A DNA stretch of 64,000 bases from an uncultured Gammaproteobacteria bacterium (GTDB lineage Bacteria; Patescibacteriota; Patescibacteriia; XYB2-FULL-38-15): the NCBI GenBank assembly GCA_965231095.1, contig OZ246416.1:249228-313227 (forward strand), read 5' to 3'. A program made the position numbers and the translations under genes. Numbering within the stretch: position 1 is the stretch's first letter; each line of letters opens with the position of its first letter. Below the pieces are notes generated by a model. The model did no database searches and was not told the origin of the DNA. It saw only the letters and a list, made by a program, of their open reading frames with translations. This document shows positions 1 to 14,696 of this stretch, one piece after another.

Positions 1-1
1 T

Positions 2-169
2 CTTGAAGCCGTAAAAGTGACGGTAACAACCGTACCTTCCACCTCAGAAGAACCCATGAGAGCAATAGTATTTGAGGGAAGTGGGAAAATATTTATTTTA
101 GACGATGGTGAGACGGCGGATACAGAATTCGAAGATTTTTATAAAAGTTTCAAACTTACGAACTAGATA
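2..169 (+). CDS. 3' end of an upstream gene (partial, enters from the window edge); hypothetical
   Basis: An open frame runs from the window start to TAG at 167-169 (…FEDFYKSFKLTN*). No recognisable domain. Confidence 0.3.
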
Positions 170-269
170 AAAGTAAATTTGTTTTAATCGGCATAAACCA
201 GGGATGGGAGTTTTGTAATTTGTTTTTGGCGGCTAACGATTTGATTAAAATTTTGATTATTTCAAATAG

Positions 270-1505
270 ATGAAAACCAAAAAAGCGCGGCGGCCGAAGA
301 AAAAAATCCGTAGCGCTAAAAAAATTAAAAAAGCGGGTGGAAAGAAAAAAACAACCAAGCGCGGCGGGAAAAAACTTAAAGCGAAAAAAATCGCCCGGAT
401 AGTTGCGCCAAAAATTCTTCCGCCATCCGATACGGCAATAAAAATCCTCTTGGACAAGGGTCGCATGAGAGGTTTTTTAACTGACTCGGAAATTCTTTTT
501 ACTTTTGCCGATTTGGAAAATTACATTAAAAAATACGAAGAATTTTTAGATAAGATAGATGAGGCTGGCATTTCCATGGTGGAAGTGAAAAGCGATATTT
601 TGGGACGAACCGAAGAAAGAAAAAAACTTTTGTCTGATATTGGCGTGAGTAAAGAAAAAAAACGGCTGGACTTGGGCGATATTTCCACGGATTCAATCCA
701 AATGTATCTTCGCGAAATCGGCAAGGTGCCGCTTTTGACGACTGAAGAGGAAATGGCTTTAGCCCGCCGCAAGGATCAGGGAGATCAGGAAGCGTCGCAA
801 AGATTGATGGTTGCTAATTTGCGTCTTGTTGTTTCTATTGCTAAAAAATTCGTGGGAAAAAATTTGTCTTTGGCTGACTTGATTCAGGAAGGGAATATCG
901 GTTTGATGCGCGCGGTGGAAAAATTTGACCCGAGTAAGGGATATAAATTTTCAACCTATGCTACTTGGTGGATTCGCCAAGCGGTGACACGCGCCCTTGC
1001 GGATCAATCGCGCACCATCAGAATTCCGGTGCATATGGTGGAGACAATTAATCGTTATCAGCAAGTCGCGCGGCAGTTGATTCAGGATTTGGGACGCGAA
1101 CCGTTGCCCGAGGAAATTGCTTCGGAAATGGGCGAGGACGTGGAAAAAATTAGAAATTTAATTCAGATTTCTCAAGATACGGTTTCGCTTGATACTTCTG
1201 TCGGCGACGAAGATGAGGACAGTGTGCTTGAAGATTTCATTGAAGACTTCAAAAATGTTTCTCCGGATCGCGCCGCGGCCTTGCAACTTTTGCGCGAATA
1301 TGTTAAAGAAGCAATTAAGGATCTCTTGCCCCGCGAACAGAAAATTTTGGAAATGCGCTTTGGTTTGTCTGATGGAGTTTCGCATACCTTAGAAGAGGTG
1401 GGCGAGGAATTTGGCGTGACCCGCGAACGCATTCGGCAAATTGAAGCAAAAGCCTTGGAAAAAGTGCAAGGGTTCAAAGGTATTGAAAAGCTGAGGGACT
1501 ACTAG
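270..1505 (+). CDS. rpoD: RNA polymerase sigma-70 factor RpoD/SigA with a Lys-rich N-terminal extension
   Basis: Region 2 signature [40 protein letters not shown], plus region 3/4 motifs ([33 protein letters not shown]). ATG at 270. Confidence 0.92.
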
Positions 1506-1562
1506 GCGGTCGGGCTTGACTTTTGTTTTTTGCGGTGGTAAGTTAGAAAAAATTTACAATAT

Positions 1563-1637
1563 TCGGGGGTAGCTCAGCGGTAGAGCAGCGCGCTGTTAAC
1601 GCGTTGGTCGTGGGTTCGAATCCCACCTCCCGAGCCA
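1563..1637 (+). tRNA. tRNA-Asn (anticodon GTT), CCA encoded
   Basis: Hand-folded cloverleaf: acceptor TCGGGGG/CTCCCGA, D-arm GCTC-AGCGGTA-GAGC, anticodon stem GCGCG/CGCGT with loop CTGTTAA, T-arm GTGGG-TTCGAAT-CCCAC, discriminator G, then CCA. Confidence 0.85.
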
Positions 1638-3236
1638 ATGTGCACGAACAGAGGTCAAAGCCTCTGTTTTTGCTTTGTTCATCGGCCTCTTCGCCGGTTC
1701 TAACCTCAAATATTCTTTTTCCAGGGCGGGATAGCCATTTTTGATAGGCACAAACCAATCGTTCGGTTCAATAATAAGTTTTTCGCCTCTAATTATTGGA
1801 GTTTTTCCAAGTGCTGCCAAAATTTCTTTCTTCAGTTCTAACCCTGCTTTACCCATTTTGTCGGCTCTCAAGAAGGCTACACGTGCGTAGGTCGCGAAAT
1901 TGAAAGTTTTTTCAGTAAGTTCCAACCACTTGTCGGCTCGTGTTTCGGTTTGCCGTAAATTTTCTTTCATTTGGTTAATCTTTCCCTGAAGAGTATTTTT
2001 TTCTCTAACAAAAGTTTCGTCGTCAATAAGTTGGCGGTATCTCATTTTTGTTAGTTCATCCAACTCTTTTTGGGTTTCGGTCAAATTTTTATGTTGCATC
2101 TCATAAACCTTTGTCCGATCTTCAATCTCGTTGTCATTCTTCTTATTTAGCCCTTCCAGCGCCCATTGCAGGAATTCTGGTAGGATAGTATATTTTTCAA
2201 TTTCTTTTTCAATCATAAGCTCCAAGTCGGCCAATGGGATATTTTTTTTCTGGTTACATTTTACTTTTGTCGTTTTCCTTGTGCAGTGATAATAGGTGTG
2301 TTCATGTATCTCGCCAGATTTGAGCAGTTTCTTTTTAGTCTCGGCGGTATAAAGACAGCCACACACACCGCATCGAATTAAACCAGTAAAAGCGAAGTCG
2401 TGAGTCTTCGGCCTCGGTTTGCCTTTTCTCCCAAGGAGCATTTGCACCCGGTCATATTCTTCAAGTGTAATCATCCGTTCGTGTTTGCCTTCGTATTGCG
2501 CGCCGTTGTAGTCTATTACGCCCGTATAGAAGAGATTTGTGAAAATCCGATAAATACCACTTCTCGATAATTCATCGCCGCCCTTCCGCTTAAATTTTCT
2601 TGTCCGAAAGCCCCATTCCTTATTTGCAATATCTAAAATTTTCGGGGGAGTATAATTGCCGGTGAGCATTAAATCCCACATTTTACGAATAATGCTAAAA
2701 CGTTCTGGATCCGTGATTATTATTTTATTTTCTTTGTCGTTAAGATAGCCGAGCGGGGCCACTCCCGTTTGCCAGCCTTTCTCTAATTTGGAAAGCATGC
2801 CGCGTTTCGTATTCTTGCTCAAATCTATGATGTATTGGTTGGCAACGCCGCTTTCAACGCTAAAAAGTAAGACGTTGTCCTCTGGGAGATATTGGCGATC
2901 CATTGTTTGAATTGATTTTAAAACGCCTCTTTGCAAGAGCCAACTTATTTTTCCGCTATCAATCGGATTACGGGAGAGGCGGTTTATTTGCCAGCATAAA
3001 ATTCCGCCTGCTTCGCCATTTTCAATTCGTTGCAGCATTTCGGAGAATAGGGGACGGTTGTCTGGTTTTTTGGCTGATTTAGCCTCGGTATAAACTTTTT
3101 TGATATTTAAATTAAGATCGGTAGCAAGTTTTTTAAGCCGATTGACCTGGTCATCAATAGACTGCACTTGCCGGTCTTCACTTTCCGACGATTTTCTGGC
3201 GTAGATAAAGTATTTAATTAGTTGGTTTGCGGCCAT
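1596..3236 (-). CDS. Large serine recombinase (integrase). The ORF track start at 3329 is TTG; ATG at 3236 (MAANQLIKYFIYARKSS…) is the more plausible start.
   Basis: N-terminal resolvase catalytic domain (YARKSSESEDRQVQSIDDQ; PLFSEMLQRIENGEAGGILCWQINRLSRN), a recombinase domain (GVAPLGYLND), a zinc ribbon (CGVCGCLY…YYHC) and a C-terminal coiled-coil. The 3' end overlaps the tRNA-Asn 3' end, as expected for an element-encoded integrase running through attL. Confidence 0.85.
   Translation of the reverse strand: MAANQLIKYFIYARKSSESEDRQVQSIDDQVNRLKKLATDLNLNIKKVYTEAKSAKKPDNRPLFSEMLQRIENGEAGGILCWQINRLSRNPIDSGKISWLLQRGVLKSIQTMDRQYLPEDNVLLFSVESGVANQYIIDLSKNTKRGMLSKLEKGWQTGVAPLGYLNDKENKIIITDPERFSIIRKMWDLMLTGNYTPPKILDIANKEWGFRTRKFKRKGGDELSRSGIYRIFTNLFYTGVIDYNGAQYEGKHERMITLEEYDRVQMLLGRKGKPRPKTHDFAFTGLIRCGVCGCLYTAETKKKLLKSGEIHEHTYYHCTRKTTKVKCNQKKNIPLADLELMIEKEIEKYTILPEFLQWALEGLNKKNDNEIEDRTKVYEMQHKNLTETQKELDELTKMRYRQLIDDETFVREKNTLQGKINQMKENLRQTETRADKWLELTEKTFNFATYARVAFLRADKMGKAGLELKKEILAALGKTPIIRGEKLIIEPNDWFVPIKNGYPALEKEYLRLEPAKRPMNKAKTEALTSVRAHWLGRWDSNPRPTR
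1615..1637 (+). repeat. attL core: 23-bp direct repeat equal to the tRNA-Asn 3' end (ttcgaatcccacctcccgagcca)
   Basis: Exact 23/23 match to 9908-9930. Confidence 0.65.
1649..1672 (+). terminator. Rho-independent terminator after tRNA-Asn (embedded in the recombinase 3' coding region on the opposite strand)
   Basis: cagagg-tcaaag-cctctg hairpin followed by tttttg. Confidence 0.5.
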
Positions 3237-3455
3237 ATTTTTGTTACAATTTAGCTGGGAGAAAGGAAAGGCAGAAGTTTCCCCCTCCGAAACTTTTGAC
3301 CTCAACCCTTTTCTCTTCTTTAAACTCAAAGGGACGGTCTGGTTGACCCAGTCGCTTCTCCGTGAGGATAGGCTTCTGGCAGACCGCCCCTTAAAGGGCA
3401 GAAACCTATAAAAAATCTCACGGATTTGTCTTATGCTGGGTCAACGTTTTTATTA

Positions 3456-3706
3456 TATCACGATTTTCCACCATTTTCCACCATTTTGATCATAACTGAC
3501 AACGATTTCCCACGATTTCCATACTTTTCCAATATTTTAATCGTAATTTTCCCTGATTTTCCACGATTTTTATTCTTCGACCACCAATCATTTTCAATCA
3601 TTTTCAATCATTTTTATTCTCCTCTTTCCCGGCATTTCCGCCATTTTCCGCCATTTTTCCAATATTTTACATTATTTTTCCGCAATTTTCCGCAATTTTT
3701 ATTCAT
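3456..3706 (+). repeat. Iteron-like array of tandem 10-11 bp direct repeats (ATTTTCCAC/ATTTTCCGC family) between the recombinase start and the SpoVG-like gene
   Basis: ttttccacca x2, cgatttcc x2, caatcatttt x3, ccattttccg x2-3, ccgcaatttt x2. There are about 14 TTTCC cores, all on one strand at helical-turn spacing. Confidence 0.55.
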
Positions 3707-3832
3707 TCATTTTGTAAATAGTTACTTCTACCTTATAGGAAATCTATTAAATAACTTTATAGAGTTAAATATAGAAAGTTATTATATATTGTTAACTATA
3801 TAGATACTTAAATAATTAACTATGAGAGATAG

Positions 3833-4174
3833 CTATTTAGAAAATATTTTTTCAATTTCTTCATCCTGGACTCCCATTCTTTTTTGATAATGGCTGTTAG
3901 TCTGCTTATAGTATTCATTCCAAATCTTTGCTTGCAGGGCTTCCCAGAGGCCTTTTTCGGGCATAAAGAATATCGGACGGTATTTTCCACCCGCCGAGGG
4001 ATAAGAAGGGGGAGTGAGCCATAATTTATCACCTTTTAAGTTTGGATATTGCGACTCCATCACTCTGAAACCCTTGACTATAAGATCTCCAAAATCTACG
4101 GAAATTATGGCTTTTAGTTTTTGCCCTTCAAGCACTTTTACTTTAATAGAGATTACGTCTAAATCTACGTTCAT
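3833..4174 (-). CDS. SpoVG family protein (113 aa)
   Basis: Collinear with SpoVG: LKAIISVDFGDLIVKGFRVMES resembles [24 protein letters not shown], and the C-terminal …IWNEYYK resembles …VLNEYHR. ATG at 4174. Confidence 0.55.
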   Translation of the reverse strand: MNVDLDVISIKVKVLEGQKLKAIISVDFGDLIVKGFRVMESQYPNLKGDKLWLTPPSYPSAGGKYRPIFFMPEKGLWEALQAKIWNEYYKQTNSHYQKRMGVQDEEIEKIFSK

Positions 4175-4198
4175 AAATTTGTTTAGTTAATTGTAATA

Positions 4199-4396
4199 TT
4201 ATGTTTTTAAGTCGCCGGTCTCTTTCCGGCGTTCTTGTAGTTTTTTGTATTCCGTCTCGGTCACTGGTTTATAAATCAACTCAACTAATCGGATGAGTTT
4301 TGCACCCTGCTCATACGCTTCCTCTCGGCTGATTTCTTTGCCGAAGTAGTTTTTATAAAGCGTTTGATAAGTTTTAATTTGCTCATCCGATAGCAT
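4199..4396 (-). CDS. Hypothetical small protein (65 aa)
   Basis: ATG ORF inside the island with coding-like composition; no motif recognised. Confidence 0.4.
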   Translation of the reverse strand: MLSDEQIKTYQTLYKNYFGKEISREEAYEQGAKLIRLVELIYKPVTETEYKKLQERRKETGDLKT

Positions 4397-4399
4397 AGT

Positions 4400-4696
4400 T
4401 TACTCCGAGTAAATTCGGTTTTTTAACATTTTGATATTATCAAAGAACGTCCTCGCCTTAACTTCTAGGCGGTCTGCCCAGTAATTATCAACGACCTTTT
4501 CAATGCCGATTTCTCGGCGAAAGATAAACTGGACTTTTTTGGGATTGGATTTGTCTAATGAGACAAGCTCAAAACCCGCCGTTGTCAATGAGGCGGCGGC
4601 TCCCAAATCAAAGGTATATAGGTGTTGTGAGTAGTCATCCGCGGGAGCGAATTTATTATCACTCCCCGGTTGACCACCTCTGAGTTTTTTGGTCAT
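4400..4696 (-). CDS. DUF5659-like protein (98 aa)
   Basis: TFDLGAAASLTTAGFELVSL…KKVQFIFRRE…VDNYW…KARTFFDNIKMLKNRIY resembles the DUF5659 pattern seen in CPR mobile elements. This is from memory and was not searched. Confidence 0.4.
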   Translation of the reverse strand: MTKKLRGGQPGSDNKFAPADDYSQHLYTFDLGAAASLTTAGFELVSLDKSNPKKVQFIFRREIGIEKVVDNYWADRLEVKARTFFDNIKMLKNRIYSE

Positions 4697-4801
4697 ATAA
4701 TTTTAGTTAGGGTTTTGGCAAATTAAAAAAGCCAAAGTTTTTTATGCTTTGACTTTACCAAAGTGTCAGGTGAGTCAATTACGGCTCAATTGCCTCAAAT
4801 A

Positions 4802-5482
4802 TCAATAATTCCGTTTTATGGTTTTTTCTTGCCAAGTAAATAAATCGTCATTGGTATTTGCTATTTCTTTTATTCGTTTATTAAGGGCGTCCACAGCGTC
4901 ATAAACTATTCGCCAATTCTCTCGGCTGTTTTGAGGTTTGCCATAGTATGCTTCATAATATCCAGTCATTTTTTGATAAATAGATGACCAATCGATTGGT
5001 TCACTTACTCCGTGCTCATACATAGCGCGGCAGAGGTAATGTTCGTTTTTGTATGGTGGGATTTGGCATTTTTGACTGCCAATTTCCAAAATTGCTTTTT
5101 CGTCGTTATATTTTACTCCCAAAGTTTTTAATTCAACCGGTTCGGGGGCTTGTTTGGTAATTTTATTTCTTCTTTCTTGAACGGTGTCTGTAAAAATATA
5201 ATGAAACTCATAAAGTTGATCAAACGCCGGCTGAATTATATCTATGTAAACGTCAGCTCTTAATAGGTCAATGCTATTGGGATCTGTTAGTTTGATAACC
5301 CCGTCTTTGGCTAATTTCCTCAATATACCAATTTCGTCATCGGAAGAGAGCGAATTGTCCCAAATATTGGAAGCGACAAAATAAGGGATATGATTTTCTA
5401 TATCAGCGTATAGTGATCTTTCTTTAATCTTTTTTAAGACGTGCCAAATACTCTCATTGAATTTTTCCTCCGGAAGTGTCAT
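4802..5482 (-). CDS. Hypothetical protein (226 aa), divergent from the RT gene
   Basis: ATG ORF with protein-like composition (W/Y-rich) and no recognisable motif. Confidence 0.5.
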   Translation of the reverse strand: MTLPEEKFNESIWHVLKKIKERSLYADIENHIPYFVASNIWDNSLSSDDEIGILRKLAKDGVIKLTDPNSIDLLRADVYIDIIQPAFDQLYEFHYIFTDTVQERRNKITKQAPEPVELKTLGVKYNDEKAILEIGSQKCQIPPYKNEHYLCRAMYEHGVSEPIDWSSIYQKMTGYYEAYYGKPQNSRENWRIVYDAVDALNKRIKEIANTNDDLFTWQEKTIKRNY

Positions 5483-5595
5483 AGTAATTTATATTATAAT
5501 ATTGCGAAATAACGCATTTCCGATGTAAGATAATATTATCAAACGTTAGGTGTTAAATCAATAACTAGGGGGTCCCTGGTTTGGAGAAAACATTT

Positions 5596-6921
5596 ATGGC
5601 ATTTTATGGAAAAATTATAAAACAAGTCGGGGGAAAATTCTGGCGGCATATTCATAAGGAGACACTTATTCCATATAAGGGCAATATGCCTAGCCGGGAG
5701 AAATTTTTGAAAGATCTTTCAGAGAAGATAGAAAAAATGCAGTATATCCCATCGCCACCTCGTGCTTATATCGTTTCGCATAAACAGAATCTGGTTGTTA
5801 GGTTTATACCTACAATGCAGAGGAGCGATTACTGCATTTATTTTTTTTGTGTTAAATCTCTTGAAAAAGAGATTGCAAAAAATCGTGTGCGGGGCACATA
5901 TGGCGGTTGGAAATTGGGAGGGAAAATTCGAAGAGCAGAGAATGGCGACGATGCACCGTCTACACCAGACGCCAGCTATAACAGATTCGAATGGATGCGC
6001 GCCTGGACAGATTATCAAAAGAGAGCATATGGATTTTATCTAAATGATAAGTTTAAGTATTTTATCGTCTTTGATATTGCAAATTTTTATGACTCGGTAA
6101 GACTTGGAAGGCTTGAAATATTGTTGCGCGAAGCAGCGCAAAAAAATAAAACTTCAGTCGTTAATCTTTTAATATATTTTTTATCGAATTGGGGTAAAAG
6201 GGATTTAAATTACGAAAGGCAAAGCACCGGGTTACCGCAAGACGAGGTCGGAGACTGTTCGAGGATCTTGGCGAATTTTTATTTGCAAGATTATGATAAA
6301 AAAATCTATAAGATTGTTTCGAGAAAAAAGGGTGGTTATCTGAGATATGCGGATGACCAAATTATAGCCGCGCCCAACGAAAAGACGGCAAAAAAAATTA
6401 TGTTTCTCGCTTCGCAAGAACTCGCCAAAATCGGTCTAAATCTAAACGCAAGTAAAGCTAAATTTTTTGAGAATCGAGATGAATTTAGTTATTTTTGGTC
6501 ATTCGATATTTTCAAATTACTCGGAAATAAAAATAACAAAAAAACGATTGAAAGCGCGTATAGTCTTTTTAAAGCAAGGAAGGCTAAGGATATACAATTT
6601 AAATCCGATGCAGTTCTCAAGAGACTTCTAAGTTGCAATCTTCGTTGCATCTCCCGAAATGTTCGCGAAGAGATCCTCGAGATGGTAAATAGAAAAGAAT
6701 TTTTGATTAATGTTAAAGACTATTATCTCAAAAGAATATACGAATTTATGCCCAGAAATAAAAAAAGTATTTTTTTGAAGTATCTAAATAATTTATCAGA
6801 CGAAATCCTTTTTAATGAGTTTCATCTAAGAGTAATGAAATTTTTCCGTGAAAAAAGAATCGACGGGATTTATTCGGATAAGCTACACTCAAATCTATTG
6901 AAACTGAATGATCTCGTGTAA
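5596..6921 (+). CDS. Reverse transcriptase of the retron/Abi/UG (defence-associated) type with an alpha-helical C-terminal extension. The ORF track start at 5581 is TTG; ATG at 5596 is preferred.
   Basis: RT motifs: motif 1/2 (IPSPPRAYIVSHKQNLVVRFIPTMQRSDYCIYF), motif A (FKYFIVFDIANFYDSV), motif B (GLPQDEVGDCSRILANFYL) and motif C (LRYADDQIIAAP), followed by about 200 aa of helical C-terminus. There is no maturase X or endonuclease domain. Confidence 0.85.
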   Translation: MAFYGKIIKQVGGKFWRHIHKETLIPYKGNMPSREKFLKDLSEKIEKMQYIPSPPRAYIVSHKQNLVVRFIPTMQRSDYCIYFFCVKSLEKEIAKNRVRGTYGGWKLGGKIRRAENGDDAPSTPDASYNRFEWMRAWTDYQKRAYGFYLNDKFKYFIVFDIANFYDSVRLGRLEILLREAAQKNKTSVVNLLIYFLSNWGKRDLNYERQSTGLPQDEVGDCSRILANFYLQDYDKKIYKIVSRKKGGYLRYADDQIIAAPNEKTAKKIMFLASQELAKIGLNLNASKAKFFENRDEFSYFWSFDIFKLLGNKNNKKTIESAYSLFKARKAKDIQFKSDAVLKRLLSCNLRCISRNVREEILEMVNRKEFLINVKDYYLKRIYEFMPRNKKSIFLKYLNNLSDEILFNEFHLRVMKFFREKRIDGIYSDKLHSNLLKLNDLV

Positions 6922-6981
6922 ACGTATCTCGCTGATTAAATAACTTTCCAAAATTAATTAAAAACGCTATTATATAAATAC

Positions 6982-7153
6982 ATCTGCCTAAACCTCGCTC
7001 CCTCCGCGAGGCATGGCAACTAAATCCTACGCGAATAAAGATGGTCTCCTGACCAGCACTTATTCGCGTAGGTCCACGTCCGAAAGGGCGTGGGGCGATT
7101 CCGAAAGGGGTCGTCGCTGTGTTGGGAGACCTTTTTTGTTTCCCTAGGCAGAT
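6982..7153 (+). ncRNA. Structured non-coding RNA immediately 3' of the RT (retron msr/msd-like or DRT-like ncRNA candidate)
   Basis: A 9-bp terminal inverted repeat (atctgccta at 6982-6990 and taggcagat at 7145-7153) closes the element. Inside are hairpin cctcgc/gcgagg, a perfect 13-bp stem cctacgcgaataa/ttattcgcgtagg (7026-7038/7060-7072) with a 21-nt loop, and two GAAA-tetraloop hairpins (7074-7093, 7095-7117). It ends with gggagacc + TTTTTT. The GNRA loops read GAAA only on the + strand. Confidence 0.5.
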
Positions 7154-7174
7154 AACAATTAAAACACACAAAAT

Positions 7175-7867
7175 ATGAAAAAAAATCTTCCAAATTGGCT
7201 TCTTTGGATCGCTGTATTCCCGGGAGCATTAATTTTTGGCTTGCTTATATTGTTTCCCCTGCATTGGATACTTTATATGGCTTTTTCTTACGACGGGACT
7301 TTTTTATTTTTTGAGTTACCCCCAGAAACAAATTTAATTGTCGAGAACGCAATTTATCCTGCTGTTTTTGCTATTGCCTTCATCTTTGCCGGTTATAAAA
7401 TTGCGCCAAAATATAAATTTAAAACAGCGATTGTCCTTTTTGGAATTTACTCTATCGCTTGGCTGACCATGATCGCTATAGTATTTTTTCAACCCGACAT
7501 TTACGGCGAGAATTTGTCTTTTCCATGGAGAGCGGCGCTGTCGTTGGTAGGCGCAATTATAGGCTTATATGTAACAAAACGTTACGGAATAAAGAAAATA
7601 GAAGAGAACCCAGCAGAGGACAAAGAATTGGACGAGATGGTGGAGGACTTCAACAGAGAAGCCGAAGCAGAGGGAAAATTAGCCCCACCGCAGGACGAGG
7701 AAACCACCCAAGTAATATTTCAACCAGGAAAATCGAAAGACCGTGGATTGGACGAAGTGATCGCGGACTTCAACAAGGATATGAAAAAATTGGGCGTAAA
7801 GGTAGTGCCGCCGAAAGACGACGGGGAGATACAAGTAGTATTTCGACAAAATTTCAAAAACAAATAA
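7175..7867 (+). CDS. Multi-pass membrane protein (about 4 TM) with an acidic C-terminal tandem repeat; candidate effector of the RT module
   Basis: Hydrophobic N-terminal half. The C-terminus contains two approximately 35-aa repeats (LDEMVEDFNREAEAEGKLAPPQDEETTQVIFQ / LDEVIADFNKDMKKLGVKVVPPKDDGEIQVVFRQ). It starts 22 nt after the ncRNA. Confidence 0.6.
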   Translation: MKKNLPNWLLWIAVFPGALIFGLLILFPLHWILYMAFSYDGTFLFFELPPETNLIVENAIYPAVFAIAFIFAGYKIAPKYKFKTAIVLFGIYSIAWLTMIAIVFFQPDIYGENLSFPWRAALSLVGAIIGLYVTKRYGIKKIEENPAEDKELDEMVEDFNREAEAEGKLAPPQDEETTQVIFQPGKSKDRGLDEVIADFNKDMKKLGVKVVPPKDDGEIQVVFRQNFKNK

Positions 7868-7923
7868 GCCAACCTCAAAATAATAAGTTAATAATATTTA
7901 TAATTTTAACTATAACCTAAACT

Positions 7924-8262
7924 ATGCCTAAAATCATCATCACGTTACTCCTCCCAATGTTACTTTTGGGTGCGGGTTGCGGAGCTGCGACATCTGGAGG
8001 CGGGGAAATTAAAATCACAAATACCGCCGAGAAGCCCGCTCCCGCGCAAAATCTTTATAACCTCGACACCGCCGATTCCGAGAATGTAGATGACTGCGTA
8101 ATCAAGGGTAACATCTCGTCGTCTGGAGAAAAAATATATCACTTGCCAGGATGCGGATCATATAGCCGAACCGTGATTGACGAAAGTGCCGGCGAGGAAT
8201 GGTTTTGTTCAGAAGATGATGCTGAGGCGGCAGGTTGGAGAAAGGCAAAAAATTGTCCTTAA
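7924..8262 (+). CDS. Lipoprotein with a C-terminal 4-Cys domain (112 aa)
   Basis: Lipobox LLLGAGC; C-terminus [43 protein letters not shown]. Confidence 0.5.
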
Positions 8263-8305
8263 TCTGGCGATCTAAGAAAATTTATTTTTAAAAACTAATT
8301 AATTT

Positions 8306-8599
8306 ATGAGTGAAATTACACAACAAAATCAAGGTCATCCAAACGCGAGTGGCTCTATATTTTTGTCAGTTGTAGCGGTAGTATTAATGTTTTTTGGTAT
8401 ACCAGCCATACTTTCGTTGATACTGGTAGCAATATCATCTCGACAAATTTTCAATGCGAAAAAAGCGGGGGAGAGTAAGAAATTTATTATCATCAGTTAT
8501 ATATTTTTGGCAGTCTCCTTGATTCTAGTTTTGATTTTGTCTTTTATAGAAGTTGTTCCTTTTGTAATCCACAGCCTGAAAGAAGCAGAAGCAATATAG
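8306..8599 (+). CDS. Small membrane protein (97 aa, 2-3 TM)
   Basis: Hydrophobic segments flanking a K-rich loop. Confidence 0.45.
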   Translation: MSEITQQNQGHPNASGSIFLSVVAVVLMFFGIPAILSLILVAISSRQIFNAKKAGESKKFIIISYIFLAVSLILVLILSFIEVVPFVIHSLKEAEAI

Positions 8600-8706
8600 G
8601 GGTAAATTTTATCCTCATTGACTATGAGCCCGGCGATAATACCGGGAAGTGTTTTGTTTTGGGAAATAGAGTATAATTAAAATGTTTTTAACTAACCCCA
8701 TAAAAT

Positions 8707-9687
8707 ATGCCTTCTGCGAAACTAGCTAAAGTAAATATAAAAATACCTGCATCATACGAACCATCTTTTGGCATAAGTAGGTGGAGTAAAAATGATTACG
8801 CGAAACCATTAATATTTAAAATCGATAATGCTGAAGCACGGATATTTTTAGAATATCCACCGACGGGGTTCTCGGTATTTCCTAAATTAAAAATATTCCC
8901 ATTTCCGAATCCATTTATAGTTTTACTGATTCGTAATCCAAGTGCTGAATTTATACAAGGATTGAAGGCGAAAAGTGGAGAAAATACTGTTAAAACGGCA
9001 GAACATATCTACAAAATATACGTAGAAGTAGTAAGTAAATTAGAAATTTTGCTTCGAACTGTAGGGGGAGTTAAAAATTTATATGAACTCAGAACTCCGC
9101 CAATAGAAGCGTTATTCAAAAAAAATATTTTAGATTATCCAGTTACCTTTCAAATAGATTCAGAAGATAAAAAACCCTTTAGTCCGAAATTTTCGACAAG
9201 GTCAAGGAGAAGGAACCCTCTTTTTAAAGCCGATCAGCTTGTAACGCCAGATAAGTGGGGGAAGATGCAAAGAGCCATTGATAATCGATATTACGCAAGC
9301 CAAGAAATTATTGAAATATTAAGAATACGAGCGAAGCTATTAGGAGAAAATAAAAAATTAGCAACTCTCGAATCTGCAATTCTTTTCGAAAGTCTGCTGA
9401 GAGACTATTCGCGTAAGACTCTTGAAGAGAGGGGAGTCAGCAATACAAAGGTGAAGGAAGTTAGTGATGAATTAAATTTCAATAATATCCTCAATCTGCT
9501 ACTTCCCCTCAGTTTAAAAAAGGCAGAGGTCCTTAAACTTCGCGAAAGTATAAATACGATTGATGCATTGAGAAAAATTAGAAACAAAGTCATTCATGGA
9601 GAATTGACAGAAGATAAGATTGATAAAAAAATAATTGAAAAGGGGATTGAGGGGGGACTGAAATTGATTAGATTTTTATTTAAATGA
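8707..9687 (+). CDS. Hypothetical protein with a C-terminal HEPN-like Rx4H motif (326 aa); possible Abi-type RNase
   Basis: The C-terminal helical region reads …IDALRKIRNKVIHGELTED… (R-N-x3-H-G, as in HEPN/Abi_2-type domains). The rest is unrecognised. Confidence 0.4.
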   Translation: MPSAKLAKVNIKIPASYEPSFGISRWSKNDYAKPLIFKIDNAEARIFLEYPPTGFSVFPKLKIFPFPNPFIVLLIRNPSAEFIQGLKAKSGENTVKTAEHIYKIYVEVVSKLEILLRTVGGVKNLYELRTPPIEALFKKNILDYPVTFQIDSEDKKPFSPKFSTRSRRRNPLFKADQLVTPDKWGKMQRAIDNRYYASQEIIEILRIRAKLLGENKKLATLESAILFESLLRDYSRKTLEERGVSNTKVKEVSDELNFNNILNLLLPLSLKKAEVLKLRESINTIDALRKIRNKVIHGELTEDKIDKKIIEKGIEGGLKLIRFLFK

Positions 9688-9907
9688 TAAGACTAGCCCC
9701 AGAATATAGGGGAACTTAAAATTAGTTAATACAAATGTTTAGATAGTTCCGGTATATAAACATACTCATTTTGTCGCTGAATTATAGTTCTAACGCTGTC
9801 CACAATTCGGAGCCAAAATAAAAATTCCGACTTTTTGTCGGGGTTTTTATTTTGTGTTTTGTGGTGACAGATTTGAACCCACCCACCGTTAAGCCATCGG
9901 GCGTAGC

Positions 9908-9930
9908 TTCGAATCCCACCTCCCGAGCCA
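9908..9930 (+). repeat. attR core: second copy of the 23-bp tRNA-Asn 3'-end repeat
   Basis: Exact copy of 1615-1637; followed by an AT-rich hairpin that is probably the original tRNA terminator. Confidence 0.65.
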
Positions 9931-9967
9931 AAATAAAATATCCAACGAAAGTTGGGTATTTTATTTT
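9931..9967 (+). terminator. AT-rich 17-bp hairpin with a GAAA loop right after attR (probably the ancestral tRNA-Asn terminator)
   Basis: aaaataaaatatccaac-gaaa-gttgggtattttatttt. Confidence 0.45.
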
Positions 9968-9998
9968 CATTTTAACGATTTTTTGCTAAGATAATACT

Positions 9999-10589
9999 AT
10001 GGATCTAAAAATATTTTTTACAATAATTGCCGCGGTAATTGGTGTCCTAGCTTTCATCCCATATTTAAGGGATATTTTTCTATTGAAAACAAAACCCCAC
10101 GCTTACACCTGGCTCATTTGGGTTATTACCCAAGGAACCGCGGTTTTGGGGATTTGGTATGGCGGTGGGAGATGGGGCGCGCTTAATTTAACGGTCGGAA
10201 TTGTCCTTGCTTTCGTTGTCTTTTTATTTTCTCTAAAATACGGAACAAAAAATATTACAAAGAGTGACACAGCTATTTTAATCGCCGCCCTTTTGGCGAT
10301 TTTAGTTTGGTGGCAATTGGATCAGCCGCTTATTTCCGTGATTATGGTTTCGGCGATTGACGTTATTGGATATTTCCCGAGTTTTAGAAAATCATATCAA
10401 GAACCGTGGAGCGAGACCCTTACTTCTTGGATTTTATTTTCCGTCTCAAATGTTTTTGCGATGCTGGCGTTATCCCAATATAATTTATTAACTTTAACTT
10501 ATTTAGTTTCAATTTCCTTCGCCAATCTTATGCTTTTCACGATTTGTTTAGCGCGAAGACCTCATGTTCCAAAACCAAAATTATTATAA
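9999..10589 (+). CDS. Integral membrane protein (about 6 TM), hypothetical
   Basis: Hydrophobic helices throughout; ATG at 9999. Confidence 0.55.
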   Translation: MDLKIFFTIIAAVIGVLAFIPYLRDIFLLKTKPHAYTWLIWVITQGTAVLGIWYGGGRWGALNLTVGIVLAFVVFLFSLKYGTKNITKSDTAILIAALLAILVWWQLDQPLISVIMVSAIDVIGYFPSFRKSYQEPWSETLTSWILFSVSNVFAMLALSQYNLLTLTYLVSISFANLMLFTICLARRPHVPKPKLL

Positions 10590-10599
10590 TTTCTAAAAT

Positions 10600-11079
10600 A
10601 TGACCTCAAAAAATTTCTTAAAACTAATTATCGCAATTCTGGTTTCCGAAGCCGCGGGGATTATTGGTTCGATTTTCACAACCCCATCAATCTCCGGCTG
10701 GTACGCGAATTTGGTTAAACCGGAATTTGCTCCACCAAATTGGATTTTCGCCCCGGTCTGGACAACACTTTTTGCCCTGATGGGTATTGCGGCATTTCTT
10801 GTGTGGAAGAGGGGATTGGACGACAAAAAAGTAAAAATCGCTCTCGGTATATTTATCGGTCAGTTGGCGCTGAACACTCTTTGGTCAATTATCTTTTTCG
10901 GTCTGCATTCTCCGGCCGGCGCGTTTTTAGAAATTATTTTTTTGTGGCTCGCCATCCTTGCCACAATCATTGCTTTCGCAAAAATTTCTCGCGCCGCAGC
11001 CTGGATTTTGGCGCCCTATATTCTTTGGGTGAGTTTCGCCGCTTATTTAAATTACGCAATTTGGACTCTTAATAAATAA
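10600..11079 (+). CDS. tspO: TspO/MBR family tryptophan-rich sensory protein
   Basis: SGWYANLVKPEFAPPNWIFAPVWTTLFALMGIAAFLVW and a W-rich 5-TM pattern typical of TspO. Confidence 0.8.
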   Translation: MTSKNFLKLIIAILVSEAAGIIGSIFTTPSISGWYANLVKPEFAPPNWIFAPVWTTLFALMGIAAFLVWKRGLDDKKVKIALGIFIGQLALNTLWSIIFFGLHSPAGAFLEIIFLWLAILATIIAFAKISRAAAWILAPYILWVSFAAYLNYAIWTLNK

Positions 11080-11114
11080 AGGTCGAATCTTAAATAAAAG
11101 AAGGAGAAAATTTT

Positions 11115-11324
11115 ATGAAAGTATTAAATTGGGTAGCCATAGTTTTGATCGTTGTTGGCGGTCTAAACTGGGGCCTGGTTGGATTTTTTAACTTTGACCT
11201 GGTCGCGACTATTTTCGGCGCAATGTCTCTTGTTTCAAGAGTGGTTTACGCCCTCGTCGGTTTGAGCGCGCTTTGGGTGCTTCTCTTTATGTTGCCGCAG
11301 ATGAACAAGAAGCCACAGATGTAA
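11115..11324 (+). CDS. DUF378 family small membrane protein
   Basis: VGGLNWGLVGFFNFDLV signature; SD aaggag upstream. Confidence 0.6.
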   Translation: MKVLNWVAIVLIVVGGLNWGLVGFFNFDLVATIFGAMSLVSRVVYALVGLSALWVLLFMLPQMNKKPQM

Positions 11325-11400
11325 TTTTGAAATTTCTCGGGCAGCCTGTCTGGAATGGGCTGCCTATAGAGATTTTCAATTTTATGCCCAAAAGAAAAAT

Positions 11401-11919
11401 ATGATAAATCTCCCAAACATTCTAAGTTTGACGCGGATTGTTTTGGCTTTTATTTTTGCTGCCCTCCTTTTTAATTATTATAAAATTCCCGCTGCGGGAG
11501 TTTTTTTGTTGGCGATTGTGACAGATGTTTTGGATGGGTATTTAGCCCGAAAATATAATCAAATTACTTTACTCGGTAAAATTTTAGATCCGGCGGCGGA
11601 CCGGCTTTTGGCGCTTCTGGCTTTTTTGATTTTATATTTAAACCACGGCCTGCCCGCCGGCCTCGCGATTTTTGCTATTTTTTATCATCTCTATATTATT
11701 TTGGGCTGGGTCCTGATTTTTCAAACAAAAAATATTACCCTTGAACATACCTTCTGGGGAAAGTTAAATTCTTTTATTCAAACAATAATGTTTTTCGCGG
11801 TGATTTTTGATTTTTATCCAAATATATTTTTTGCGGCAGTGACGATTTCGCTTACTGTGGCTTTCCTAAATTATACTTTTCGGGGACTGATTGCCCTAAA
11901 TATTTTTAAGACAAAATGA
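11401..11919 (+). CDS. CDP-alcohol phosphatidyltransferase family protein (PgsA-like)
   Basis: DVLDGYLARKYNQITLLGKILDPAADRLL, i.e. the D-G-x2-AR…G…D-x3-D motif. Confidence 0.7.
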   Translation: MINLPNILSLTRIVLAFIFAALLFNYYKIPAAGVFLLAIVTDVLDGYLARKYNQITLLGKILDPAADRLLALLAFLILYLNHGLPAGLAIFAIFYHLYIILGWVLIFQTKNITLEHTFWGKLNSFIQTIMFFAVIFDFYPNIFFAAVTISLTVAFLNYTFRGLIALNIFKTK

Positions 11920-12461
11920 TTATTCTTCAAAGTTTATATTTTATGTTGCCGGCCTACATCGCAAATATGGCGCCGGTTTTTGCACGAAAATTTGGCGTGT
12001 TTAAATTTTTAGCGCGGCCGGTTGACGGCGGACGGCAGTTTCGCGGCAAGAGAATTTTTGGCGATCATAAAACTTGGCGGGGATTTTTGGTTGGCATTGT
12101 GGCGGCAATCGCGATAGTGTGGCTTCAGTATTTTTTATATTCAATTCCGGTCTTTAAAAATTTAAGTTTATTAAATTATTCTGAAAAAAAATTGTGGATT
12201 TTAGGTTTTCTTTTCGGATTTGGCGCGCTCTTTGGCGATCTGGTAAAAAGTTTTTTCAAGCGGAGAAAAAATATTTTGCCCGGAGCGTCGTGGATTCCTT
12301 TTGATCAAATTGATTTTGTGATTGGAGCTTTGATTTTTATTATGCCGGTTTATTTTCCTTCGTGGCCAGCCGTGATTATAATTTTATTCTTTAGTCCAAT
12401 CCTCCATATTTTAACAAATCAAATTGGTTATCTTTTGAAAATAAAAAATACGCGTTGGTAG
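11916..12461 (+). CDS. CarS-like (DUF46, CDP-archaeol synthase family) membrane protein
   Basis: RGKRIFGDHKTWRGF signature and membrane topology; translationally coupled to the preceding phosphatidyltransferase (ATGA overlap). Confidence 0.45.
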   Translation: MIILQSLYFMLPAYIANMAPVFARKFGVFKFLARPVDGGRQFRGKRIFGDHKTWRGFLVGIVAAIAIVWLQYFLYSIPVFKNLSLLNYSEKKLWILGFLFGFGALFGDLVKSFFKRRKNILPGASWIPFDQIDFVIGALIFIMPVYFPSWPAVIIILFFSPILHILTNQIGYLLKIKNTRW

Positions 12462-12502
12462 AACCTCTTGAAATTTAAAGAAAAAATTGATAGACTGACC
12501 TC

Positions 12503-13177
12503 ATGGGAAAACTATATATTATTGCCACGCCAATCGGAAATTTGGAGGATATAACCTTGCGCGCTCTTAGAATTTTAAAAGAGGTTGATTTGGTTTTGTG
12601 CGAGGACACAAGGCAAACTAGAAAATTACTTGATAAATACGAAATAAAAACGCGAACCTTGAGTTATCACCAGCACAGTAAGTTGGCGCGGGTGGAAGAA
12701 ATTATTAATTTACTTCGCGAAGGAAAAAATCTGGCGTTGGTTTCCGACGCCGGCACGCCGGCCATTTCCGACCCGGGCGGAAAATTAGTTGAAGAAGTTT
12801 TGCGGGCGTTTGGTGATGAGACACAAATTATTCCTGTTCCGGGAGCATCGGCCGTTGCCGCCGCGGCGAGCATTTCCGGTTTTCCCACCGATAAATTTTT
12901 ATTTTTAGGTTTTCCGCCGCATAAACACGGCCGTGCCGCTTTTTTTAAAAAAATTTCCGACATGGAAGAAACCGTTATTTTTTACGAATCAACTCACAGA
13001 ATTTTAAAATCCTTGGAAGAACTGCGGGGAGTGGCGGGGGCGAGACAGATTGCCGTTTGCCGCGAATTAACAAAAATGTTTGAAACAATTTATCGGGGAA
13101 AAACATCCGAAGTTTTAGAAAAATTAAAAGCCGACACAACAAAAGGAGAATTTGTTGTTGTGGTAGAAAAAAAATAA
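12503..13177 (+). CDS. rsmI: 16S rRNA (cytidine1402-2'-O)-methyltransferase RsmI
   Basis: LYIIATPIGNLEDITLRALRILKEVDLVLCEDTR… tetrapyrrole-methylase fold. Confidence 0.85.
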   Translation: MGKLYIIATPIGNLEDITLRALRILKEVDLVLCEDTRQTRKLLDKYEIKTRTLSYHQHSKLARVEEIINLLREGKNLALVSDAGTPAISDPGGKLVEEVLRAFGDETQIIPVPGASAVAAAASISGFPTDKFLFLGFPPHKHGRAAFFKKISDMEETVIFYESTHRILKSLEELRGVAGARQIAVCRELTKMFETIYRGKTSEVLEKLKADTTKGEFVVVVEKK

Positions 13178-13178
13178 T

Positions 13179-14696
13179 ATGGCGAAAAATAAAAAATTTT
13201 ACATCACCACACCGATTTATTACGTGAATGCCAAGCCGCACATTGGCCATGCTTATACAACGATTACGGCCGATATTTTGGCACGATACCACCGAATGCG
13301 CGGCGATGAAGTTTTCTTTTTGACCGGGACCGACGAGCACGGCGCGAAAATCAAGCAAATTGCCGACAAGGCGGGAAAAAGTCCGAAAGAATTTGTTGAT
13401 GAAATCTCCGCTTCTTTTTCCGGGGCGTGGGATATTTTAAATATCTCAAATGATAATTTTATCAGAACAACCGACCCGGCGCATGTCGAGGCGGCGCAAG
13501 AAGTGACACAAAAACTTTTTGACAAAAAACTTATTTACAAAGGAAAATACGAAGCGCTCTATTGCGTCGGCTGCGAACAATATAAAACTAGGGCGGAGTT
13601 GGTTGATGGAAAATGTCCGGATCATAAAATTGAACCGGAAGTGCGCTCCGAAGAGGCCTACCTTTTTCGGATGTCGGAATTTCAGGAAGAATTATTGCGG
13701 CGCATAAAAAGTGATAAATTAAAAATCAGTCCGGAAACGCGCAAAAACGAGATGATTTCTTTTTATGAAAAAGAAGGCCTGAAAGACGTGGCGATTTCCC
13801 GGAAAAAAGAGAGCGTGCCCTGGGGGATTGAATTGCCGTTTGATCGCGACCATACGCTTTATGTTTGGATTGATGCGTTTTTAAATTATTTGACTGGCCT
13901 TGGTTGGCCAAAAGATAAAAAAAATTATAAAAAATTCTGGCCGGCTAGTTTACAATTAATGAGTAAAGATATTCTGCGCGTTCACGCCACGATTTGGCCG
14001 GCCGTACTTTTGGCCATGGGAGAAAAATTGCCAAAAGAACTTTTTATCCACGGATATTTTACGATTGACGGACAAAAGATGAGTAAGTCGCTTGGTAATG
14101 TTGTTGATCCCGTGGAGTTGGCGCAAAAATACGGCGTGGATGAAGTTCGCTATTTTCTTTCGCGGGAAATTTCTTTTGGCGAGGACGGGGATTTTAGTTT
14201 TAAACGTTTAGAGGAAAGGTACAACGCGGAATTAGCCAACGGTCTGGGAAATTTGGTGGCGCGGGTGCTCGCGATGGGTGAAAAATATTTTGATGGAAAA
14301 ATTCCGGAGAAAACTGGCGGCAGCGTGGAGAGGACTTGGCAGAGTTATAAAATAAATATGGAAAAATTGGCGCCGCACTTGGCTCTGAAAGACATTTGGG
14401 ATTTGATTTCTTTTTGTGACCAATTTATAAACACCGAAGCGCCCTGGCAACTCGCAAAAACCGATAAAAAAAGATTGTCGCGGGTGATTTATACCTTGCT
14501 TGAAACAATCCGCCACATTGCCTGGTTTATTTCGCCGTTTATGCCCATGACTTCGGATAAAATTTTTGAACAGCTTGGTTTGGAGCCGGAAAAAGAAAAG
14601 AAAAAAAGTTTAGAGAAAGCAAAAGTTTGGGGCGGACTTGCGCCGGGCGAAAAAATAAAAAAAGGCGCGGCCTTGTTCCCGAGATTAGAAAAATAA
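13179..14696 (+). CDS. metG: Methionyl-tRNA synthetase
   Basis: HIGH motif (PHIGHAYTT), KMSKS (KMSKSLGN) and the zinc knuckle CVGCEQY…CPDH. Confidence 0.92.
   Translation: MAKNKKFYITTPIYYVNAKPHIGHAYTTITADILARYHRMRGDEVFFLTGTDEHGAKIKQIADKAGKSPKEFVDEISASFSGAWDILNISNDNFIRTTDPAHVEAAQEVTQKLFDKKLIYKGKYEALYCVGCEQYKTRAELVDGKCPDHKIEPEVRSEEAYLFRMSEFQEELLRRIKSDKLKISPETRKNEMISFYEKEGLKDVAISRKKESVPWGIELPFDRDHTLYVWIDAFLNYLTGLGWPKDKKNYKKFWPASLQLMSKDILRVHATIWPAVLLAMGEKLPKELFIHGYFTIDGQKMSKSLGNVVDPVELAQKYGVDEVRYFLSREISFGEDGDFSFKRLEERYNAELANGLGNLVARVLAMGEKYFDGKIPEKTGGSVERTWQSYKINMEKLAPHLALKDIWDLISFCDQFINTEAPWQLAKTDKKRLSRVIYTLLETIRHIAWFISPFMPMTSDKIFEQLGLEPEKEKKKSLEKAKVWGGLAPGEKIKKGAALFPRLEK

Follow-up and report, generated by a model that had tools for sequence, protein, structure and literature searches.

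We analysed a 64,000-nucleotide (nt) stretch of DNA, hereafter the window (positions 249,228 to 313,227 of the forward strand of contig OZ246416.1, GenBank assembly GCA_965231095.1), from a genome assigned, on the closest homologues, to Patescibacteria of the candidate phyla radiation (CPR). In this window a gene for a 441-amino acid (aa) reverse transcriptase (RT) is followed on the same strand by a structured RNA element and by a gene for a protein with four transmembrane (TM) segments. An earlier reading, made from the letters and open reading frames (ORFs) and called here the sequence-only reading, had taken the three for one retron- or DRT-like module. Our analysis points elsewhere. The RT matches the known UG13b group, the RNA is the known LOOT motif (Rfam RF03000), and it is likely that these two, together with the unrelated cargo beside them, are chance neighbours on an integrative element of about 8.3 kb and not a new retron-like system. 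LOOT was observed at 5 (4 of them distinct) of about 85 UG13b loci scanned, and among the matches listed a UG13b RT was present at none of about 37 LOOT loci that had been picked without reference to any RT. The RNA is unconserved beside UG13b and occurs mostly without an RT, and on this the proposed module fails.

Identity of the reverse transcriptase and of the RNA

The sequence-only reading was right about the RT itself. The ORF carries the RT motifs GLPQDEVGDCSRILANFYL and YLRYADDQ, matches Pfam RVT_1 with an E value of 5e-13, and was found to hold no maturase or endonuclease domain. The PADLOC profile RT_UG13b matched residues 7-426 of 441 with 475 bits (E 4.9e-143), and the runner-up PADLOC RT groups, UG13a (111 bits), UG21, UG19, Drt8 and UG9, were all at 1e-32 or worse. 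The YADD motif is intact, and the catalytic residues D160, D253 and D254 did not vary among 18 homologues. We built an AlphaFold model with 18 homologues as input (predicted local distance difference test, pLDDT, 85.8; predicted template modelling score, pTM, 0.84), in which an RT core is followed by an all-helical C-terminal domain at residues 294-441. The helical tail noticed earlier is thus seen in the model, at about 150 aa instead of the roughly 200 first given. The best full-length Foldseek matches of the model were UG15/DRT4, DRT6, Abi-P2, AbiK and AbiA, with query-based template modelling scores (TMq) of 0.45-0.60, and the sequence identity to these solved Class 1 structures is only 13-17%. 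The C-terminal alpha-helical (alphaRep) domain by which Class 1 UG/Abi enzymes are recognised was found in the predicted model.

Other classes of RT were rejected. The NCBIfam retron models gave 45.4 bits for St85 (cut-off 235) and 21 for Ec67 (cut-off 450). The group II intron model TIGR04416 gave 65.9 bits against a cut-off of 300, and an Rfam scan of positions 1-14000 found no intron RNA. The RT of a diversity-generating retroelement (DGR) was rejected on the sequence GLPQDEVGDCS, which stands in place of the IGxxxSQ motif, and a repeat search of 1400-10200 found no long imperfect repeat of the template repeat/variable repeat (TR/VR) type. Among the DRT groups that depend on a non-coding RNA (ncRNA), the best E values were 8e-13 (Drt2) and 7e-17 (UG17) as against 5e-143 for UG13b, and the RT scored far under the cut-offs of the NCBIfam Drt2/3/4 models. 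The profile hidden Markov model (HMM) classification by PADLOC and NCBIfam therefore agrees with the earlier assignment to the Abi/UG defence RTs and not to group II introns, DGRs or retrons. By these profile matches, the window RT is a new Patescibacteria member of the known UG13b group, a defence-type enzyme of the Class 1-like UG/Abi kind.

The UG13b group was defined by Mestre et al. 2022, who predicted a defence role from individual loci in defence islands, and who report no ncRNA for the group (PMC9226505). The window RT shares with the group as published its full-length profile, a length of about 440 aa, the helical C-terminus and a place in mobile or defence DNA. It differs from it in nothing material, its own setting being a tRNA-integrated serine-recombinase element in Patescibacteria. 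With the Class 1 UG/Abi enzymes (DRT4/UG15, DRT6, Abi-P2, AbiK and AbiA) it has in common a single-protein layout and a helical C-terminal domain. According to the literature (PMC12632851 and others), protein-primed, untemplated DNA synthesis and anti-phage activity are established for the Class 1 relatives AbiK, Abi-P2, AbiA, DRT4 and DRT7 only, and the characterised Class 1 UG/Abi enzymes act as single proteins with no RNA partner. By analogy with these five, the window RT would most likely respond to phage infection by protein-primed synthesis of untemplated single-stranded DNA, with no RNA partner.

The structured element begins 60 nt after the stop codon of the RT, and its parts were as first described. 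In the minimum free energy (MFE) fold, an outer perfect 9-bp duplex joins 6982-6990 (ATCTGCCTA) with 7145-7153 (TAGGCAGAT), and it encloses a perfect 13-bp stem (P3) and two GAAA-tetraloop hairpins (P4 and P5; Table 1). Positions 6975-7160 fold with an MFE of -94.8 kcal/mol (z-score -10.55), and none of 200 dinucleotide shuffles was as stable, so that the stability of the element is far beyond chance. Rfam identified it as LOOT RNA (6985-7115, all 121 model positions, 77 bits where the gathering threshold is 46.4, E 2e-13), and our own covariance model (CM; R1) scored it at 78.6 bits. The window copy has the P1-P5 helices of RF03000 with tetraloops of the GNRA type and matches the full model. 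The family as a whole extends past the Rfam model, with a putative promoter and an ACAAYTNAAT motif on the 5' side and, on the 3' side, a strand complementary to the P3 loop and then a U-run.

Two points of the first description did not hold. The U-tract (T6), which had been placed at the end of the element, sits inside the outer duplex, and the duplex itself, which had been likened to the a1/a2 arms of a retron, was rejected as a trait of the LOOT family (self score 3.14 against 2.9 across loci, p 0.23). The likeness to retrons is superficial: a structured element whose ends form a duplex lies near an RT. Retrons differ from the window in the clade of their RT and in their conserved a1/a2, whereas the 9-bp duplex is private to the window and LOOT occurs mostly without an RT.

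UG13b and LOOT, together and apart

The CM used in our scans was built from 28 LOOTs, including the 3' extension of the Rfam core. It was run on 748 kb from 87 sources: the window itself, 80 genome loci and a further 6 contigs. LOOT was observed only in the window, in L008 and in L324/L325 (loci outside the window are named by L and a number), to which a later scan added L379; at the Rfam gathering threshold, 36 UG13b loci yielded LOOT only in L008. At about 80 other UG13b loci the CM scan found no LOOT, and these include the closest homologue, which shares 79% identity with the window RT.

A sister element, L181, shares the backbone of the window element and has no RT. It contains, in the order seen in the window, orf65, DUF5659 and an orf226-like gene, with LOOT 108 nt further on, followed by a TM gene and a homologue of the 112-aa lipoprotein gene (lipo112). 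The 40 nt upstream of its LOOT align with window positions 6945-6975, which suggests that the window RT gene was placed upstream of a pre-existing LOOT promoter. The site occupied by the RT in the window, between the divergent control region and the LOOT promoter, is without an RT in L181.

These observations bear directly on the proposal that RT, LOOT and TM protein are one defence system resembling DRT10, with LOOT as a binding partner of the RT and/or a template for cDNA, and the membrane protein as effector. In the window the three parts do lie close together on a single strand, as such a system would have them, but the place of LOOT relative to the RT varies between loci, from +63 nt in the window to +1.27 kb in L379 (behind a 346-aa gene, a terminator hairpin and its own -10 box), 1.7 kb upstream of the RT in L008, and 7 kb off on the other strand in L324, where it is divergent from a serine recombinase. 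LOOT and UG13b do lie on the same element at four distinct loci; against this stand the many UG13b loci that have no LOOT, the 79%-identical one among them, the absence of UG13b from the independent LOOT loci (among the matches listed), and the sister element L181, which retains LOOT without any RT. No terminator separates RT and LOOT in the window, yet LOOT has a predicted promoter of its own, and in L379 a terminator splits it from the RT operon. An RT followed by LOOT occurs a second time, in L238, but the RT there is of a different class, that of DGRs. Finally, no SLATT or other defence signature was found in the TM protein, neither an RT nor LOOT lies near its homologues, and many UG13b genes have no flanking non-coding space. 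On balance we regard this reading as very unlikely.

Precedents for UG RTs that need an adjacent structured ncRNA do exist. In DRT3 (UG3 and UG8) the ncRNA lies downstream of the UG8 RT, as given by Mestre et al. 2022 (PMC9226505), which removes the premise that the ncRNA is always upstream in known systems; in DRT2/DRT9 it lies upstream. The RTs of these systems belong to groups other than that of the window RT, and the ncRNAs of DRT2, DRT3 and DRT9 keep their position across homologues, which LOOT does not. The nearest known look-alike of an RT with an ncRNA and a membrane protein is the tripartite DRT10 (UG17 RT, ncRNA and SLATT protein). As outlined in PMC12632851, its RT is of Class 2, and the ncRNA and the SLATT gene are in tight co-evolution with it. 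The window RT, by contrast, reaches only 7e-17 with UG17, conservation alongside the RT is lacking for both the RNA and the TM gene, and the TM protein does not belong to SLATT.

Some points weigh against the reading of a chance neighbourhood. An RT gene ends directly before LOOT at two loci, the window (UG13b) and L238 (DGR RT), and LOOT is on the same element at 3 of the roughly 10 closest CPR relatives of the RT (>60% identity), which is above what a random gene would show. The gap between RT and LOOT in the window is without a terminator, RT transcripts probably run into LOOT, and the RT and LOOT may come into physical contact. The Class 1 membership of UG13b is suggested by HMM affinities and by a predicted model with a TM-score of 0.55-0.60. 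The role of leader or attenuator that we propose below for LOOT was inferred from its position and structure, Rfam giving its type as 'Gene; sRNA'. A bolder form of partnership would be that a Class 1-type UG13b RT has recruited the LOOT of its element as a scaffold, sensor or template, the window being the most compact unit of RT, LOOT and membrane protein. We hold this to be highly improbable; if true, it would be the first ncRNA-dependent untemplated Abi-like RT, and would give a function to the orphan LOOT.

RTs of another kind were also observed near LOOT. DGRs with an RT of the IGNLTSQ type are present on three types of LOOT-bearing element, L238, L171 (= L344, L347) and L342. Those of L238 and L171 include an Avd-like four-helix ORF, and the one in L238 has an asparagine-rich TR and two VR-bearing targets, with LOOT starting 136 nt after the stop of the DGR RT. 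In L171, a second, incomplete copy resembling LOOT, with P1, P2 and the 5' strand of P3 (36.9 bits), was seen on the opposite strand at 7902-8018(-), at the 3' end of the DGR RT. It could be asked whether the retroelements on CPR mobile elements, be they DGRs or UG13b, share LOOT as a general accessory RNA, considering that DGR RTs occur with it in L238, L171/L344/L347 and L342 and UG13b RTs in the window, L008, L324 and L379. This appears scarcely likely, given that about 30 of the 37 LOOT loci chosen without bias (among the matches listed) have no RT in the fetched DNA, that distances and orientations vary, and that the two classes of RT have unrelated mechanisms. DGRs are reportedly common in CPR genomes (Paul et al. 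2017), so that their co-carriage with LOOT is to be expected. As for UG13b, we infer that the co-occurrence of LOOT with the closest relatives of the window RT is joint carriage on one family of mobile elements.

The surroundings of UG13b genes elsewhere agree with this reading of separate cargo. Our sample comprised 80 loci from named genomes and further contigs for the closest homologues. The neighbours of the RT were entirely different even at 79% and 66% RT identity; the 79%-identical RT (L321) is flanked by a Schlafen/AlbA_2 gene and an Exo_endo_phos gene, without LOOT. At 11 of 76 loci the RT gene lies inside a type I restriction-modification (R-M) operon, with HsdR, HsdS and HsdM confirmed by Pfam. 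R-M-embedded copies were noted in L001, L004, L005, L006, L037, L040-L044, L063, L070 and L072, where the gaps are often of a few nt. Many UG13b genes have gaps of <10 nt on either side, which leaves no room there for an RNA gene.

Several UG13b genes of Bacteroidota have, immediately behind the stop codon, an imperfect palindrome of 60-205 nt closed by ACAAC...GTTGT (z to -4.2). The same palindrome follows unrelated neighbour genes, six times in L021 and twice in L015, and a UG13b-specific 3' ncRNA was rejected on the grounds that the palindrome is shared with genes other than RTs in an attC-like cassette array. We take these palindromes to be an integron-type attC array, in which the RT would be a one-gene cassette, and this argues for its autonomy. 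A comparison of 67 loci found no common sequence downstream of the RT except at near-identical loci and at terminators. The two closest RT homologues have a common 31-nt piece in that place (L321 9547-9577 and L380 2962-2992), formed of a small hairpin and a T-run and then TTGGTAGAATA, which resembles a terminator plus promoter and is not LOOT. The presence of UG13b in type I R-M operons and as single-gene cassettes of the attC type supports the published prediction of a defence function, and supports a view of UG13b as a self-contained mobile defence gene as far as gene neighbourhoods can indicate it.

LOOT as an RNA family

To our knowledge, LOOT had been an orphan RNA from metagenomes, its organisms and context unknown. 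A first search pattern, GCCTAAACN{10,25}GGCATGG, was too loose and gave mostly chance matches in the metagenome and viral collections. True LOOTs were sieved from the metagenome and IMG/VR pattern matches by folding energy, Rfam and our own CM, and Rfam confirmed 20 of 20 shortlisted loci. LOOT itself comes from the survey of Weinberg et al. 2017, which names a separate RT-associated set, RT-1 to RT-19, without LOOT.

An alignment of 28 LOOTs made with MAFFT had 94.1% of cells paired and double-sided changes in 25 of 30 pairs, with 0 of 500 shuffles as high, and its structure also beat all slid controls; in a CM alignment of 41 sequences 97.6% of cells were paired. The Rfam model stops ahead of a further helix, formed between the apical loop of P3 and the 3' tail that follows P5. 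Each of its 8 pairs shows double-sided changes, and paired cells amount to 98.6% in the 28-sequence MAFFT alignment and to about 98.5% in the 41 sequences. In some members this long-range helix competes with an apical mini-hairpin of P3. Together with the U-run behind its 3' strand it resembles, on sequence and pairing, an intrinsic terminator with its upstream strand tied up in a pseudoknot, and in the window the LOOT transcript is likely to end by intrinsic termination at 7124-7137. In most copies a -10-like box is present and then, 5-25 nt ahead of the Rfam start, the motif ACAAYTNAAT, and in most loci this zone of box and motif spans 5-45 nt upstream. It would follow that LOOT has its own promoter and that its transcript begins 5' of the Rfam model.

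The sequence-only reading had itself named the prospect that the element might lack conservation or covariation in homologues and be only a terminator. Conservation beside the homologues of the RT is indeed lacking, but the element covaries and is far more than a terminator. That it should be a mere intrinsic terminator or 3' untranslated region of the RT gene is almost certainly wrong. There is a U-run behind a GC-rich helix, and RT transcripts probably stop there, since no other terminator intervenes; however, the element is a 150-nt RNA of five helices with a pseudoknot, its own predicted promoter precedes it, and covariation across 41 loci, the majority of which have no RT, already refutes this reading.

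Downstream of LOOT, an ORF on the same strand was found in 22 of 25 evaluable copies; its start lies about 120-260 nt (in most cases 140-200) past that of LOOT. The ORFs are mutually non-homologous and code mostly for small TM or secreted proteins. Homologous ORFs with the start M[AS]IIIS[KQ]NGKNAV were seen behind three copies, in L238 at 4403-5461(-), in L353 and in L342, the one in L238 being of about 350 aa and nuclease-like by eye. At at least 8 loci (L084, L116, L140, L143, L147, L238, L376 and L378) the 5' strand of P3 is copied right before the start codon of the next ORF, and the match is specific to the own locus (permutation p 1e-4); sometimes the repeat takes in the 3' strand of P1 and the linker. 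This suggests that the P3 3' strand could pair with the translation start region of the next gene, and the locus-by-locus covariation of the repeat points to an interaction of LOOT with the adjacent message. The window LOOT was rejected as a carrier of this repeat (score 5.5, rank 24 of 27).

A different role, that of a trans-acting small RNA (sRNA) of the element, for instance in immunity or regulation with element or host targets elsewhere, would make the position upstream of a gene incidental. We consider it possible, though rather less likely than not to be right. It accords with the Rfam type 'Gene; sRNA', with the own predicted promoter and terminator-like 3' end, with the compact, highly structured form and its tetraloops, and with the two full copies (L353, L376) seen on one viral contig. 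It does not account for the 22 of 25 LOOTs that lie directly upstream of a same-strand ORF, and the start-codon repeat at the same eight or more loci points to the adjacent message, even if the pairing could still be in trans between tandem transcripts.

Serine recombinases lie near LOOT at 13 of 41 loci (7 of 28 metagenome and 6 of 13 viral ones), often adjacent and divergent, and DUF5659 is recurrent in its vicinity. Judging from this recurrence, LOOT is a backbone feature of Patescibacteria serine-recombinase mobile elements and of CPR phages.

The element and its cargo

The integrated island proposed earlier proved to be real. It spans about 8.3 kb, its target is a tRNA-Asn gene, and its ends are a direct repeat with a 24-nt exact core, TTCGAATCCCACCTCCCGAGCCAA, that is the 3' end of the tRNA-Asn; with the serine recombinase, these repeats confirm the island location. 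The features of the element are collected in Table 1. The recombinase ORF reaches into the 3' half of the tRNA-Asn (window 1596-1637), and such an overlap of recombinase end and tRNA also occurs at the LOOT locus L183, where the tRNA spans 44-126 and the recombinase match stops at 82. The iteron-like array is possibly an origin of the element or a region bound by a protein or regulator.

Table 1. Coordinates of the features of the window element, followed by features of other LOOT and UG13b loci
Feature	Position	Strand	Basis or remark
tRNA-Asn(GTT), integration target	1563..1637	+	ARAGORN; Rfam tRNA 71.2 bits; 3' end is the attL repeat copy
Left direct-repeat copy (att), with 24-nt exact core	1595..1638	.	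repeat search
Large serine recombinase (integrase), 3' end overlapping tRNA	1596..3329	-	Pfam Resolvase, Recombinase, Zn_ribbon_recom; PHROG integrase E 5e-72
Iteron-like array, six ~31-nt repeats (ATTTTCCAC..., ATTTTCC...)	3463..3705	.	repeat search; between recombinase and SpoVG-like gene
SpoVG-like gene, leftward backbone	3833-4174	-	Pfam
orf65, leftward backbone	4199-4396	-	homologue adjoins LOOT in RT-less L181
DUF5659, leftward backbone	4400-4696	-	Pfam; also adjoins LOOT in L181, L008, L358
orf226 (226-aa ORF), leftward backbone	4802-5482	-	homologue next to LOOT in RT-less L181
UG13b reverse transcriptase, 441 aa	5596..6921	+	PADLOC RT_UG13b; RVT_1
Predicted sigma-70-like LOOT promoter TTTCCA-17-TATTAT	6945..6973	+	consensus scan; start predicted ~6980-6982
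LOOT RNA, RF03000 core 6985-7115 and 3' extension	6984..7148	+	Rfam, own CM, covariation
LOOT helix P1	6985-6988/7015-7018		
LOOT helix P2	6993-7011		
LOOT helix P3	7026-7038/7060-7072		perfect 13-bp stem
LOOT helix P4	7074-7093		GAAA-tetraloop hairpin
LOOT helix P5	7094-7115		GAAA-tetraloop hairpin
Long-range helix 5' strand GGTCTCCT, P3 apical loop	7043..7050	+	pairs with 7124-7131
Long-range helix 3' strand GGGAGACC, then T6 (7132-7137)	7124..7137	+	U-run conserved behind the strand in 27/28 aligned LOOTs
Outer-duplex 3' arm, pairs with 6982-6990	7145..7153	+	MFE fold; not family-conserved
Four-TM protein, 230 aa, duplicated C-terminal module	7175..7867	+	first gene after LOOT, ATG 21 nt past duplex
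Lipoprotein-like, 112 aa (lipo112)	7924-8262	+	homologue at same relative place in L181
TM protein, 97 aa (TM97)	8306-8599	+	rightward cargo
HEPN-like protein, 326 aa	8707-9687	+	HEPN_RiboL-PSP E 1e-4, below Pfam cut-off
Right direct-repeat copy, displaced tRNA-Asn 3' end	9888..9931	.	84% identity overall, 24-nt exact core
Long-range helix columns, alignment A3	71-78/153-160		
Long-range helix columns, alignment A5	80-87/188-195		
DGR, L238	5791-10762		
DGR, L171	4975-7912		
DGR, L342	8093-9166		
Palindromes, L021	3193-3351, 5256-5412, 6081-6238, 6791-, 8492-, 9138-		
Palindromes, L015	5293 and 6496		
Palindromes, L007	5297-5435 and 6074-6262		

The four-TM protein has no Pfam, NCBIfam or PADLOC family apart from a weak match to UPF0154 (Pfam, E up to 0.1), and its identity as a SLATT effector was rejected, no SLATT profile having matched. 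Its homologues are Patescibacteria membrane proteins of about 140 aa that correspond to the TM part only; no RT was found in three of their contexts examined, and no LOOT in the DNA of two of them. The soluble C-terminus is a tandem duplication (LDE[MV]..DFN...PP.D...Q V.F; repeats 7627-7655 and 7747-7775), and public gene calls begin the gene at an internal Met (196 aa). An R-x4-H motif (RNKVIH) lies near the C-terminus of the 326-aa HEPN-like protein, whose gene could be separate cargo with a toxin or defence function. Across the 80 UG13b loci we found no homologue of the four-TM protein, orf226, lipo112, TM97 or the HEPN-like protein. It had been proposed that orf226 and the HEPN-like ORF are accessory to the RT; this was not borne out, orf226 being present in an RT-less LOOT element and neither gene at the 80 UG13b loci. 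By its distribution, orf226 is a backbone gene of the leftward module of the element and not an RT accessory, and by theirs the TM gene and the genes behind it are variable cargo and not conserved partners of the RT.

Put together, the RT would be a stand-alone UG13b cargo gene in a mosaic tRNA-Asn element of a Patescibacteria (CPR) genome. LOOT would be driven by a promoter of its own that follows closely on the RT stop, and would fold into P1-P5 and the pseudoknot helix of P3 loop and 3' tail, followed by the U-run. Ending in this way it would be an RNA of about 150 nt or, on read-through, a leader of the rightward cargo genes. Its position and structure suggest that LOOT may act as a cis-acting leader or attenuator, or as a tandem small RNA, that gates the gene behind it.

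What had appeared to be a new retron-like architecture is thus probably a known RT family beside a known RNA motif, and our result is mainly a correction: the apparent module of RT, RNA and TM protein does not warrant pursuit as a new system. Of most use is the context now given to LOOT, along with its extended structure. The genomic context, the promoter, the pseudoknot helix and the start-codon copies together make the hypothesis of a cis-regulatory LOOT testable.

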